Of a stretch of 64,000 nucleotides of DNA, positions 18,391 to 55,252 are shown piece by piece; positions within the stretch are counted from its first letter, which is position 1, and every line of letters begins with the position of its first letter. Location: positions 5,101-69,100 of the forward strand of contig DFHF01000022.1 of NCBI GenBank assembly GCA_002371825.1, written 5' to 3'. This DNA is from Ruminococcus flavefaciens. GTDB lineage: Bacteria > Bacillota > Clostridia > Oscillospirales > Ruminococcaceae. The notes below the pieces were generated by a model. The model searched no databases. It was not told the DNA's origin and saw only the letters and a program-made list of their open reading frames with translations. The position numbers and the translations under genes are program-made.

Positions 18391-19074
18391 CTATTCATAG
18401 AGCGATGCCAGAAAGTCCGGGTCAATATCGATACAGCTGCTGTTTTTGGGTACGCAGGCTATGACCTGGAGATTTGTCAGGTATTCGCACATTCTTTTGT
18501 TATCCTCATGCATGATATCTCCCTCGGAGAAATTATTGAAGATAATTCCTTTTACTTTCAGCCCGTGGGACTGCATATACTTGCAGGTCAGAACAACGTT
18601 GTTTATAGTGCCCAGGCCTGCATCTGCAATTATAAGGCAGGGGAGGTCAAGCTGTCGGATAATATCCTCAAGGAAGAGCTTTTCATTGTCGAAGCGTATG
18701 GGGCATATAATACCGCCGCTGCCTTCGACGGTGACGAGATCATATTTATTGCAGACCTTGCTGTAGCATTCCATTACGGTCTTCATGTCCACCGGACCGC
18801 CTTCAATTTTAGAGGCAAGGTGAGGTGAGACTGCTGTTCTATATACATAGGGACACATCTCTGAAAGCGGCTGATCTATTCCTGATACTGTTTTAACATG
18901 AATAGCATCTCCGGGGATGAGGCTGCCGGAAAGATCACGTTCATTGCCGCTCATAGCAGCTTTGAAGTAAGCGGCGTTCCGTCCGGATCCTCTCAGCTTT
19001 TTCAGAATAAGTCCGGTGACATAGGTCTTGCCGATGTCGGTTCCCGTACCTGTGATGAATAATCCCTTGCTCAT
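18391..19074 (-). CDS. bioD: Dethiobiotin synthase
   Basis: FITGTGTDIGKT, VEGSGG, GLGTIN. Confidence 0.95.
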   Translation of the reverse strand: MSKGLFITGTGTDIGKTYVTGLILKKLRGSGRNAAYFKAAMSGNERDLSGSLIPGDAIHVKTVSGIDQPLSEMCPYVYRTAVSPHLASKIEGGPVDMKTVMECYSKVCNKYDLVTVEGSGGIICPIRFDNEKLFLEDIIRQLDLPCLIIADAGLGTINNVVLTCKYMQSHGLKVKGIIFNNFSEGDIMHEDNKRMCEYLTNLQVIACVPKNSSCIDIDPDFLASLYE

Positions 19075-34746: not shown

Positions 34747-35090
34747 CACGGCACATAAGGGAAGCAGCATTTACTTTCTATCTAAGATGAGCGAAAGCAG
34801 AGTAAGTGCCTCGAACAGAGCATCAGCGTGAAAAGGGATGCAAGGGATGTTATCCCTTGCCAGAGCCCAGAGGCAGCGCCTCTGGTCGCCGTTTTCAGCT
34901 TTAAAGACGGCGAAATAATACGAAGGCGCTTCGCAAAGGGTGAATCCCCAAACAGTCCGGTGGACTGTTTGGGGAGAGGGAATGCCTTGCAAGTGAAGGC
35001 ATTCCCTTGTTACAGCGCACAATTTATATGCCTGCGGAGTTACCTCCGCACATAAAAAGTAAATGCTGTTGCCGTGCCGGCTCATCCGGC
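34747..35090. repeat. Composite palindromic (REP-like) element
   Basis: At least seven hairpins (34840-34860, 34867-34885, 34886-34913, 34921-34933, 34945-34975, 34977-35007, 35033-35050) enclosed by agcagcatttactt (34763-34776) / aagtaaatgctgtt (35057-35070). Confidence 0.75.
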
Positions 35091-35239: not shown

Positions 35240-35268
35240 TTGATTTGTTCATATTAAAAGTCTATAAT
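35240..35268 (+). promoter_or_regulatory. SigA promoter of the mannanase gene
   Basis: TTGATT-17-TATAAT. Confidence 0.7.
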
Positions 35269-35269
35269 A

Positions 35270-35359
35270 AATGTGTAATCAATAACCGCCCTACGGCGGT
35301 TATTGCCCTGAACTTTGTTCAGGGAGCGCAAATTCTTTATAAAATATGGAATTTGCGCA
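35270..35359 (+). repeat. Three-hairpin leader element, copy A
   Basis: 82/90 nt identical to 54461-54550. Confidence 0.9.
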
Positions 35360-35544
35360 TCGCATTTCTTTATGTCATGCTCATTTTGCCCTTTAGGGCA
35401 AAACAAAGTGCAGGAAAAATTATCGGATAATTTTTCCTTGCACTCTGACAACTGAAAATTGGCTTTTAAAAGCTGTATAAAGCCAATTTTAAGTTGTTGA
35501 GCAGACATTAATTAAAGCATATTTTAGATAGGAGGATATTAAAA

Positions 35545-37374
35545 ATGTATCTGAAGATGATCAAAAAAGCAGGAGCATCAGTTCTGGCAGCAGCTATCAC
35601 CCTCAATGGAGCAGTTGTGGGTGCAGCAGGGGTATCTGCGGCCGATCAGGAAGTGACCCGCTATGAGTGGGAAGACGCTGAATTCACTGGTACAGGCGGT
35701 GTTAAAGAGGATAAGGACGCTTCGGGCGGAAAGTATTTCTACCTTGAAAGCAATTCTGATACCGCAACACTGAAGGTGACTGTTCCTTCGACCGGAATGT
35801 ATAAGCTTACAATAGGCTATAATGCAGCTTTCGGTGAGAAGATACAGAACCTTTATGTCAATGGAGTGGATCAGGGACAGCTCTCCTTCACTTCAAAGAC
35901 ATGGACGGAGCTCAACTGCGGTGCAGTAAAGCTCAATGAGGGCGAAAATGAGGTAATGATAAAGAGCAGCTGGGGCTGGACAAACTTCGATTATCTCATA
36001 GTAGAACCGGCTCAGCTGGGAAAGATCGAGGCAAAGCAGACTACTCCGGTGGACAAGCTTGCTACCAAGGAGACCAAGAGCCTCATGTCATATCTTGCAG
36101 GTGTCTACGGAAAGAATATCATTTCCGGTCAGCAGGAGATATACAAGTATGGTCCCCACGATATGGAATATGAATTTGAGTACCTCAATGATACCACGGG
36201 CCACTATCCGGCTATAAGAGGCTTCGACTACGGCAACTTCACCTGTCCGGCATTCGGCAGTGACGACGGTTCAACAGAGCGTGTTATCAGCTGGGTAAAG
36301 GAAAAGAACGGTATCGCCACATCCTCATGGCACCTTAATGTCCCCAATAAGATGGAGGATTTCACAATAGGAAGCAAGATAGACTGGTCTGCTACCTCAT
36401 ACACTGCAAAGGATAACGACTTTATGCCTTCAAAGGTATATGTTGAAGGCACCAAGGAGAATCAGTACTATGAGCAGGCTCTTAAGACTCTTGCAGCTGA
36501 GTTCAAGAAGCTGGAAGAGGCCGGAGTTCCGCTTATCTGGAGACCTCTCCATGAGGCCGAAGGCGGCGGCGGAGAGAACGGTTCATGGTTCTGGTGGGGC
36601 AAGGAAGGCTCAGAGGTCTATAAGAAGCTCTGGCGCTATACCTACGATAAGCTGGTAAATGAGTACGGCTGCCACAATCTTATCTGGGAATGGAACAGCT
36701 ATAACTATGAGACATCAGCAAACTGGTACCCCGGTGATGAATATGTTGATATCATAGGCTACGATAAGTACAACTGTACAGACTGGTCATCAGGAAGTGC
36801 GGTGCTCAAGCATAACGACAGCGCTATAAGCTCAACATTCTACGGAATAATGGAGAAATATGACCATCAGAAGATGGTATCCATGGCTGAGAATGACTGC
36901 TTCTCCACTGTTGACAATCTGACAGCTGAAAAAGCAGGATGGCTCTATTTCTGTACATGGTATGATGGCGGAAGCGCAGATAACAACTTCCTTACAAATC
37001 CTGTTTTCAACACAAAGGAAGACACTATAGCTATGTATCAGAGCGATTACTGCATCACTCTGGATGAGCTCCCGAAAGACCTTTATTCAAAGGAAAGCGG
37101 AAACGACGAGGATGAGTATACTGTTACATTGTGGGGAGATGCAGACTGTGACGGCTTTGTCAAGATGAATGATGCAGTTCTCGTAATGCAGTCCATCTCA
37201 AACGGTGACAGATTTGGTCTTGAAGGAACAGATGAGCATCATCTTACTCCTCAGGGCGCAGCAAATGCTGACTGCTATGATCCGGGCAGCAAGATCACTC
37301 CTATGGACGCAAACTCCATACAGAAATTCCTTCTCAATCAGATCAGCGAATTTCCGGAAAAAGCTTCCGAGTGA
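35545..37374 (+). CDS. Cellulosomal beta-mannanase: CBM35-GH26-dockerin
   Basis: Signal peptide; CBM35-like module (RYEWEDA...KSSWGWTNFDY); GH26 motifs IISGQQ, PLIWRPLHEAEG, WFWWG, DIIGYDKY, SMAEN, WLYFCTW; Ruminococcus group-1-like dockerin WGDADCDG..MNDAVLVMQ...MDANSIQKFLL. Confidence 0.92.
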   Translation: MYLKMIKKAGASVLAAAITLNGAVVGAAGVSAADQEVTRYEWEDAEFTGTGGVKEDKDASGGKYFYLESNSDTATLKVTVPSTGMYKLTIGYNAAFGEKIQNLYVNGVDQGQLSFTSKTWTELNCGAVKLNEGENEVMIKSSWGWTNFDYLIVEPAQLGKIEAKQTTPVDKLATKETKSLMSYLAGVYGKNIISGQQEIYKYGPHDMEYEFEYLNDTTGHYPAIRGFDYGNFTCPAFGSDDGSTERVISWVKEKNGIATSSWHLNVPNKMEDFTIGSKIDWSATSYTAKDNDFMPSKVYVEGTKENQYYEQALKTLAAEFKKLEEAGVPLIWRPLHEAEGGGGENGSWFWWGKEGSEVYKKLWRYTYDKLVNEYGCHNLIWEWNSYNYETSANWYPGDEYVDIIGYDKYNCTDWSSGSAVLKHNDSAISSTFYGIMEKYDHQKMVSMAENDCFSTVDNLTAEKAGWLYFCTWYDGGSADNNFLTNPVFNTKEDTIAMYQSDYCITLDELPKDLYSKESGNDEDEYTVTLWGDADCDGFVKMNDAVLVMQSISNGDRFGLEGTDEHHLTPQGAANADCYDPGSKITPMDANSIQKFLLNQISEFPEKASE

Positions 37375-54430: not shown

Positions 54431-54459
54431 TTGATTTATTTGCAAAGATGTGCTATAAT
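54431..54459 (+). promoter_or_regulatory. SigA promoter of trmB
   Basis: TTGATT-17-TATAAT with extended TG. Confidence 0.7.
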
Positions 54460-54460
54460 C

Positions 54461-54550
54461 AATGTGTTCTCAATAACCGCATTACGGCGGTTATTGTCCC
54501 GAACTTTGTTCAGGGAGCGTAAATTCTTTATAAAAAATGGAATTTGCGCA
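54461..54550 (+). repeat. Three-hairpin leader element, copy B
   Basis: 82/90 nt identical to 35270-35359. Confidence 0.9.
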
Positions 54551-54589
54551 GATATTAATTGCATCAAAACTTGTTTACCGGAGGTTTAT

Positions 54590-55252
54590 ATGAGAATACG
54601 TCATAAACCATGGGCAAAGCCGGAACTTGAGGCCTGCCCGTTTTATATAAAAGAACCTCAGCAGCAGATAGGCCGCTGGAGAGAGCTTTTCGCCGAGCCG
54701 GACAAGCCCCTTTATGTGGAGCTTGGCTGCGGCAAGGGAGGCTTTATCTCGCAGGCAGCTCCGGCTCATCCGGAAGTGAATTTCATTGCTATGGATATAA
54801 AGAACGAGATGCTGGTGCTGGCTAAGAGAAAGCTGGAACAGGCCTATGCGGAAAAAAATGCCTCTCCGGACAATGTTCGCATAGCCATACAGAATATCGA
54901 GCGGCTTGAACTGGCATGGGACGAAAATGACCGGGCAGAGAGGATATATATCAATTTCTGCAATCCGTGGCCGAAGAAAAAGCACAAGAAGCGCCGCCTG
55001 ACACATACAAGGCAGCTTGTGAACTATAAGAAATTCCTGAAAGGGGAGCTCTGGTTCAAAACTGATGATGACGAGCTCTTTGAGGAGTCCTTTGAGTATT
55101 TCGCAGAGGCCGGATACCGCATAAAGTACAAGACCTTCGACCTTCATGCCGAAAGTCCCTACGAGAATTTTGTGACCGAGCACGAGAAGATGTTCACTGA
55201 TGAGGGAAAGAAGATAAAGTTCCTCATAGCTGAACCTGTCAGGGAGGACTGA
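54590..55252 (+). CDS. trmB: tRNA (guanine-N7)-methyltransferase TrmB
   Basis: MRIRHKPWA, VELGCGKGGF, YINFCNPWPKKKHKKRRLT, FKTDD, TEHEKMF; RBS ggaggt; start 54590. Confidence 0.94.
   Translation: MRIRHKPWAKPELEACPFYIKEPQQQIGRWRELFAEPDKPLYVELGCGKGGFISQAAPAHPEVNFIAMDIKNEMLVLAKRKLEQAYAEKNASPDNVRIAIQNIERLELAWDENDRAERIYINFCNPWPKKKHKKRRLTHTRQLVNYKKFLKGELWFKTDDDELFEESFEYFAEAGYRIKYKTFDLHAESPYENFVTEHEKMFTDEGKKIKFLIAEPVRED

Follow-up and report, generated by a model that had tools for sequence, protein, structure and literature searches.

The repeated 5' leader found behind two promoters of the window studied here, a 64-kb stretch of DNA (G000:C55:5101-69100), is very probably a MITE of part of the rumen and gut Ruminococcus (the R. 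flavefaciens group), which lands in existing promoters and becomes the 5' leader of the gene that follows. The family proper consists of ATGTGTCCTCAA...TTGAGCAGACAT plus a 6-bp AT-rich target duplication, usually TAATTA, and it makes up a new family of MITEs that favours promoter -10 sites to an unusual degree. What look like dozens of conserved 5'-UTR motifs in rumen Ruminococcus, the mannanase leader with its six hairpins and the leader of trmB in the window among them, come down to one transposable element, and should be treated as such rather than as independent regulatory RNAs.

Two copies of a repeat in the window

The original prediction was that the segments 35270-35359 and 54461-54550 are 82/90 identical and co-oriented, and realignment bears this out. 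Each repeat copy starts 1 nt after a TTGATT-17-TATAAT promoter (35240-35268 and 54431-54459), while the 17-nt spacers of copy A and copy B are, as had been stated, unrelated, matching at 6/17 positions. The three stems proposed for the shared segment fold in both copies as described (z = -9.1 and -6.6 against dinucleotide shuffles), and for the 24-nt palindrome of the first hairpin, H1, the chance expectation in the window is 0.00. The genes downstream are indeed unrelated, with a CBM35-GH26 enzyme behind copy A and a TrmB-type methyltransferase behind copy B; equally, a search of the 64-kb window against Rfam 15 gave no match at the gathering threshold, in agreement with the view that the motif belongs to no known RNA family, and at E<10 the whole window returned sub-threshold, chance-level matches only. 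Two points had to be extended: the shared segment is real, but copy A does not end at 35359 and instead reaches 35508, comprising six hairpins; and the pair in the window stands, but as part of about 19 copies in the genome. The features of the two copies are as follows.

35240-35245, + strand: host -35 TTGATT of the GH26 promoter, outside the repeat; the spacers upstream of all copies are unrelated
35263-35268, + strand: -10 TATAAT, in which host TA is joined to nucleotides 1-4 of the left target-site duplication; the filled/empty pairs are arranged in the same way
35265-35270: left target-site duplication of copy A, TAATAA
35271-35508, + strand: copy A element, full length
35271-35282, + strand: left terminal inverted repeat (TIR) ATGTGTAATCAA (family consensus ATGTGTCCTCAA); the start of transcription predicted near 35275 falls inside it
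35280-35305, + strand: hairpin H1, CAATAACCGCC / GGCGGTTATTG
35306-35324, + strand: hairpin H2, CCCTGAAC / GTTCAGGG
35326-35358, + strand: hairpin H3, GCGCAAATTC / GAATTTGCGC; the segment common to copy B stops here
35372-35508, + strand: 3' domain, present in copy A but not in copy B, with closing helix ATGTCATGCTCA / TGAGCAGACAT
35384-35403, about 35404-35447 and 35448-35497: hairpins H4, H5 and H6, within the closing helix of copy A
35497-35508, + strand: right TIR TTGAGCAGACAT
35509-35514: right target-site duplication of copy A, TAATTA
35545-37374, + strand: CBM35 + GH26 mannanase gene downstream of copy A (Pfam scan)
54431-54459, + strand: host trmB promoter TTGATT-17-TATAAT; -35, spacer and -10 are identical in the element-free genome G067
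54456-54461: left target-site duplication of copy B, TAATCA (decayed TAATTA)
54462-54555, + strand: copy B, a 94-bp short form with left TIR, H1, H2, H3 and the right-TIR remnant TTGCGCAGATAT
54556-54561: right target-site duplication of copy B, TAATTG (decayed TAATTA)
54590-55252, + strand: trmB (Methyltransf_4), downstream of copy B

Upstream of copy A, the intergenic stretch 34954-35070 (also 34747-35090) shows a DNA word depth 10-20x that of its flanks in two metagenomes (173-410 vs 11-26); a different high-copy repeat is therefore present in the same intergenic region.

Anatomy of the element

At full length the MITE measures ~238 bp, with six hairpins and 12-nt imperfect terminal inverted repeats, ATGTGTCCTCAA / TTGAGCAGACAT, whose consensus is complementary at 10/12 positions; this full form is seen in copy A and in the copies at C62:93964 and C21:31367. 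It opens with TAATGTGTCCTCAA, followed by hairpins H1, H2 and H3; the 3' part is a multibranch domain closed by ATGTCAAGCTCA/TGAGCAGACAT, which holds H4, H5 and H6, and the element terminates in TTGAGCAGACATTAATTA. On either strand, the folding energy of the complete unit is -111 kcal/mol (z = -13). The repeat is modular: several copies, including copy B, have lost internal sequence but retain both ends, the derivative sizes being 94 bp and about 50 bp, and in copy B the deletion fuses TTGCGCA, where H3 ends, to TTGAGCA in the right TIR. An 84-aa minus-strand reading frame that spans copy A is open in 0/18 full-length copies. Taking 50-800 bp and no coding capacity as the size and coding criterion for a MITE, the family falls within these bounds, and it likewise shows terminal inverted repeats, target duplication and presence/absence polymorphism.

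Still smaller derivatives, of ~46-75 bp, occur in public MAGs (L107, L112 and L157) and in the genome G018 (C10:6987-7038 and C12:94290-94364). They are built either from the left-end half (TIR and one arm of H1) taken twice and placed head to head, or as left TIR-H1-right TIR, and their existence suggests that the terminal ~20 nt together with H1 may suffice for mobility. In G000, the genome that holds the window, solo remnants are found at C32:19940 and C23:20138, in which either TTGACG-17-TATAAT is followed by just TAATGTGTTCTCAATAAA and a ribosome-binding site, or the left TIR is fused to H3; these are old insertions, cut down to about 20-60 nt with the promoter retained.

Target duplication and empty sites

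In G018, similarity among copies ends sharply on both sides of the element. The left and right flanking hexamers are identical in 34/55 two-ended copies. Since the usual hexamer TAATTA is palindromic, it cannot by itself tell an inverted from a direct repeat, but the variant hexamers can: the non-palindromic ones form 13 identical direct repeats (TAATAA seven times, TAAATA four times, TAATTC and TAAGTA) and 0 reverse complements. A few copies carry 7-bp duplications, for example TAATATA.

Empty sites are provided by G067, the closest relative of G000, whose flanks are ~90% identical. Upstream of trmB, G067 reads TTCAGCGTCTTGATTTATTTGCAAAGATGTGCTATAATTACATCAAC..., which matches copy B in -35, spacer and -10 and has a single TAATTA and no element. 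Six further G067 loci, compared by querying with the flanks and fetching the regions, are likewise empty with a single TAATTA: purB, a galE-like gene, an HTH gene, tyrA, C25_47201 and a flippase gene. In another clade, the purB promoter carries a short element in G068 and is empty in G009, which brings the number of filled/empty pairs to at least 8 in all. As the purB promoter is filled both in G000 and in the different clade of G068, it has been hit twice independently; the trmB promoter also bears an element in G060. Because the -35, spacer and -10 are present at the empty sites, the promoters pre-date the element and lie outside it.

We also considered a parse with a TA duplication and an 18-nt inverted repeat, as in IS630/mariner-like ends. 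This parse predicted GTGCTATACATC at the empty trmB site, where the actual sequence is GTGCTATAATTACATC, and it is contradicted by the direct, non-palindromic hexamers as well. An apparent excision footprint at mreB in G067, TATAATATAAATATA, was withdrawn, since all five relatives carry it and it is thus ancestral. At aroC in G067 (L088, G067:C159), TATAATTA and the ribosome-binding site are separated by ~137 nt of GC-rich, structured leader. In G000 a truncated copy of the element stands in place of this leader, so that after the insertion a leader that may be native and regulatory was lost.

Copy number, host range and age

BLAST and iterated nhmmer over the whole G000 genome yield ~19 copies, all of which, when printed in register, begin at TATAAT; a TTG-type -35 stands at 17 nt in 17/19, with unrelated spacers. 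The 19 copies precede unrelated genes (purB-like, GH26, aroC, trmB, mreB, tyrA and cobT, further an ECF sigma factor, a flippase, an XRE regulator and others), and every copy is in sense orientation, 95-300 nt before a start codon. With the full-length query, matches were obtained in 11/25 genomes of the same genus, at 0 to >25 copies each, and in 0/16 other genera of the order. In G018, the TIR pattern ATTAATGTSTSCTCAWYAAC has 69 matches on both strands, compared with 0 for the reversed control; the matches are mostly paired about 250 bp apart, with some shorter pairs at 50-240 bp. An exact-pattern scan with one genome per species gave >119 stretches, nearly all from rumen or gut Ruminococcus, with R. 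flavefaciens SAb67 and Ruminococcus sp. XPD3002, YRD2003 and SIG537 among the named hosts; MAGs labelled Ruminiclostridium or Clostridia are also included.

The phage and plasmid collections contained no match to the MITE. In IMG/VR, one full-length copy is present (L213 395-650, IMGVR_UViG_3300010282_000241) with TAATTA at both flanks; the predicted viral contig that hosts it is 38 kb long and might carry the element from one species to another. A different sequence of ~130 nt lies upstream of the G000 copy at C58:18508 (C58 ~18530-18660) and recurs, at 80-89% identity, in 2-4 copies per genome in all five related genomes that were searched; it is either another dispersed repeat or a conserved small RNA.

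The median pairwise identity of copies is 94% in G018 vs 75% in G000, and we take the copies of G018 to be young and those of G000 to be old. This creates a puzzle with regard to G067, in which no copy was detected at E<=1e-8: the G000 copies are only ~75% identical to one another, compared with ~10% flank divergence between G000 and G067, and by this measure they look much older than the split of the two genomes. Diverse source subfamilies could account for the discrepancy, as could filled promoter alleles imported by recombination, precise excision in G067, repeats left unassembled in the 265-contig draft of G067, or alignment noise in the loops; all are possible. One G067 contig, at the orthologue of C21:31367, stops 14 nt short of the start codon.

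A transposase with the same ends was not found between the TIR pairs of the 119 public loci or of G018, these being draft genomes and MAGs in which insertion sequences are often unassembled. The larger TIR pairs that do occur enclose other genes: a 6-kb inward-facing pair in G018 contains PBP1A and housekeeping genes, and those among the 119 public loci contain genes for a response regulator, a PhzF-like protein and an ABC transporter. PF13358 (DDE_3) is absent from 8 carrier genomes, while control genomes were positive. Derivation from IS630/Tc1-mariner was rejected on this absence from 8 host genomes and on the duplication, which is 6 bp and not TA.

Association with promoters

The target TAATTA overlaps the string TATAAT+TA, so that insertion rebuilds the -10, which for this reason seems to be duplicated along with the leader. 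Among 139 unique copies with an intact 5' end, TA precedes 96, and 53/139 stand in full promoter context, defined as TA plus a TTG-type -35 at 16-18 nt; by genome, this holds for 14/18 copies in G000 and 11/24 in G018. The mirror test at the 3' ends found promoter context in 0/62. A random TAATTA site in G000 has promoter context in 6.3% of cases per orientation (~10.9% for roughly intergenic sites), and against 6.3% the value of 53/139 has a binomial p = 8e-28. The enrichment at promoters and the complete orientation bias are thus real, and the data are compatible both with target choice and with survival as their cause. Roughly one in two G018 copies has no promoter in front of it, and some adjoin terminators or gene ends; several lack a -35 and are flanked by CATAAT, GATAAT or AGTAAT.

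The sole terminator-like site reported by the scanner lies on the antisense strand, where H1 is followed by a U-rich run, and it is plausible that this is the reason why reverse insertions behind promoters go unseen. The antisense H5 hairpin with its U-run was considered as a further terminator; it is at best weak, because the U-run pairs into adjacent stems.

Insertion at TATAAT+TA keeps the host -35, spacer and -10, with the element landing between the -10 and the old leader. We propose that transcription would then start ~7 nt past the -10, within the left inverted repeat, and that the whole element would become a structured 5' leader of 95-240 nt on any gene that the promoter drives. The accumulation in one orientation is likely to reflect a target bias towards TATAATTA together with selection, both against the reverse orientation, with its terminator-like hairpin, and against insertions into coding DNA. 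Older copies such as those in G000, copy B among them, would shrink by internal deletion while the promoter-proximal end is kept. The effect on the host gene is most likely passive or mildly modulatory, through mRNA stability (the 5'-proximal hairpin) or sites for a double-strand RNase; a dedicated ligand or protein switch seems unlikely.

Transcription and conservation of the fold

In a metatranscriptome from a sample that also holds G000, one contig (35379-36141) runs from inside copy A into the GH26 coding sequence, and the GH26 mRNA thus carries at least the 3' half of copy A. At the galE-like locus, an RNA contig extends from element position +60 into the coding sequence; the contigs did not cover trmB or the mreB leader. 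The RNA contigs break in the repeated 5' part, so that they show co-transcription and the start site cannot be read from them; from the position of the -10, a start near 35275, within the left repeat, is predicted.

All six stems have double, pair-preserving substitutions across the family, for example at H1 pair 24-35 (CG 85, TA 47), H4 pair 124-137 (TA 55, CG 18) and H6 pair 200-227 (TA 37, AT 20), and divergence is 11-13% in paired vs 24-33% in unpaired columns. G-U and A-C mismatches are about even over the whole family (308 to 260); as the antisense strand also folds equally well, the pairing is conserved, although not clearly as sense RNA. In the old, promoter-embedded copies of G000, G-U exceeds A-C on the sense strand by 52 to 24 (p = 0.002). 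However, C>T changes on the sense strand are in excess in unpaired columns too (13/54 C vs 2/31 G), and the G-U excess in G000 is thus only suggestive of selection at the RNA level. Together with the compensatory changes, it nonetheless points to some structural constraint, possibly on the RNA, so that a pure "junk" reading may be incomplete; the evidence for an RNA-level function of the leader is weak. The likeness of TTCTTTA in H3 to an rrn-type boxA antitermination site was also considered and set aside: TTCTTTA is an AT-rich 6-mer within a stem, and mobility explains its conservation.

Alternative explanations

One of the two readings in the original prediction was a regulatory 5'-leader RNA, riboswitch-like or a regulon element, and it is not supported. 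A dedicated cis-regulatory leader of this type, be it riboswitch-like or a site for an RNA-binding protein or RNase, would define a regulon and have its copies kept by selection, and it would account for the finding that every G000 copy points in the sense direction, 95-300 nt ahead of a start codon, the very stable RNA fold (z -9 to -13), the compensatory pair changes in all stems, the preponderance of G-U over A-C in old copies (52 to 24) and the presence of the leader in RNA. The empty sites speak against it: the closest relative, G067, has the same promoters with no element and zero copies, and where the repeat does occur it ends in inverted repeats and is flanked by target-site duplications. 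Genomes of the genus hold between 0 and >25 copies, around half of the G018 copies lie outside promoters, some of them by terminators or gene ends, and the downstream genes are unrelated, without a common function, the leader not being conserved at orthologous promoters. The mismatch counts of the family as a whole (308 to 260), the C>T bias in unpaired columns, the lack of an Rfam family and the equally good fold of the antisense strand all weaken the argument from RNA structure. We consider this reading very unlikely. A version that combines mobility with function is also rather unlikely in our view, though less so. It holds that the transposition machinery targets the sigma-A -10/+1 junction, for example by recognising TATAATTA or polymerase-opened promoter DNA, and that the leader has been co-opted as a post-transcriptional handle shared by purB, aroC, tyrA, mreB, trmB, the GH26 mannanase and others, through which one RNase or RNA-binding protein would act; in its favour are the orientation bias of 53 to 0, the two hits each on purB and trmB, compensatory substitutions throughout the stems and, in old promoter-embedded copies, the excess of G-U on the sense strand.

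The other suggestion in the original prediction, a mobile promoter/leader cassette, turned out to be half correct: the leader is mobile, while the promoter is not, its -35, spacer and -10 being those of the host and pre-dating the insertion. From the TATAAT that precedes the repeat, the TTGATT shared by both window copies and the similar leaders before non-homologous genes, one might conclude that it is a mobile promoter as defined by Nijveen, Matus-Garcia and van Passel (PMC3575422), with promoter and leader moved or recombined as one unit that brings transcription to new genes. Similarity, however, begins abruptly inside the -10, with unrelated spacers (6/17) before it; the -35, spacer and -10 are nearly identical at empty orthologous sites; and several G018 copies do without a -35, next to CATAAT, GATAAT or AGTAAT. 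That the promoter itself moves is accordingly extremely improbable. A REP/BIME-like or IS200/IS605-derived palindromic element (PATE), mobilised as single-stranded DNA by a tyrosine (HUH) transposase that would recognise the hairpins and insert beside a fixed target, leaving no duplication, is extremely improbable, despite the abundance of hairpins, some of them subterminal, their symmetric conservation on both strands, and insertion beside a specific short sequence in an orientation fixed relative to the flank. The flanking hexamer varies and is directly repeated (13 identical non-palindromic pairs, and 7-mers such as TAATATA), which identifies it as a target duplication and not a fixed end of the element, and true inverted termini exist. 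We thus retain the MITE that lands in promoters as by far the best reading of the repeat.

Significance and comparison with known systems

The family offers a clean natural case in which the target of a MITE overlaps the -10 hexamer, so that the promoter is preserved and the 5' UTR alone is rewritten. The natural filled and empty alleles of identical promoters (purB and trmB; G000 vs sister species) are ready-made constructs, which could be used to measure the effect of a 95-240-nt structured leader on expression in a cellulolytic rumen bacterium, and since the same promoters were hit repeatedly, the family might serve as a model for promoter-directed transposition. A full-text literature search on MITEs in Ruminococcus found no description of the ATGTGTCCTCAA...TTGAGCAGACAT family.

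Stabiliser hairpins at the very 5' end are known from Gram-positive mRNAs, such as the B. subtilis aprE and ermC leaders. H1 resembles them in that it starts ~5-6 nt into the predicted transcript, a likeness by position only. Putative mobile promoters are described as highly similar upstream regions before non-homologous genes within one genome (PMC3575422); compared with these, the Ruminococcus MITE reuses only the sequence downstream of the -10.

Among small repeats, BOX, RUP and SPRITE of Streptococcus pneumoniae and ERIC/IRU of enterobacteria are modular, hairpin-forming and intergenic, are often transcribed within neighbouring mRNAs and vary in copy number between strains (PMC3049150, PMC2229807). 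The Ruminococcus MITE is similarly small, modular, hairpin-forming, transcribed with its neighbours and variable in copy number. It differs in its ends, as BOX is without such TIRs or a target duplication and RUP uses TA (IS630-Spn1), and none of BOX, RUP, SPRITE and ERIC/IRU is reported to sit systematically at the -10/+1 junction (PMC3049150, PMC2229807).

The closest system in behaviour is that of the Correia elements (CREE/NEMIS) of Neisseria, MITEs of 100-150 bp with inverted-repeat ends that are found mostly just upstream of genes and occur in internally deleted size classes (PMC2649163; PMC10969869). Their target junction contributes promoter hexamers, and they are co-transcribed with the downstream gene, the folded RNA being a substrate for RNase III; they duplicate TA, carry promoters of their own and an IHF site, and are restricted to Neisseria (PMC2649163; PMC10969869). 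Both are thus gene-upstream MITEs with a junction that adds promoter hexamers, with co-transcription and with internally deleted forms. Compared by description, the Ruminococcus MITE is longer, has six hairpins and a Clostridia host, duplicates 6 bp, brings no -35 and uses the promoter of its host; and its orientation bias relative to promoters is all-or-none, one-sided at existing -10 boxes.
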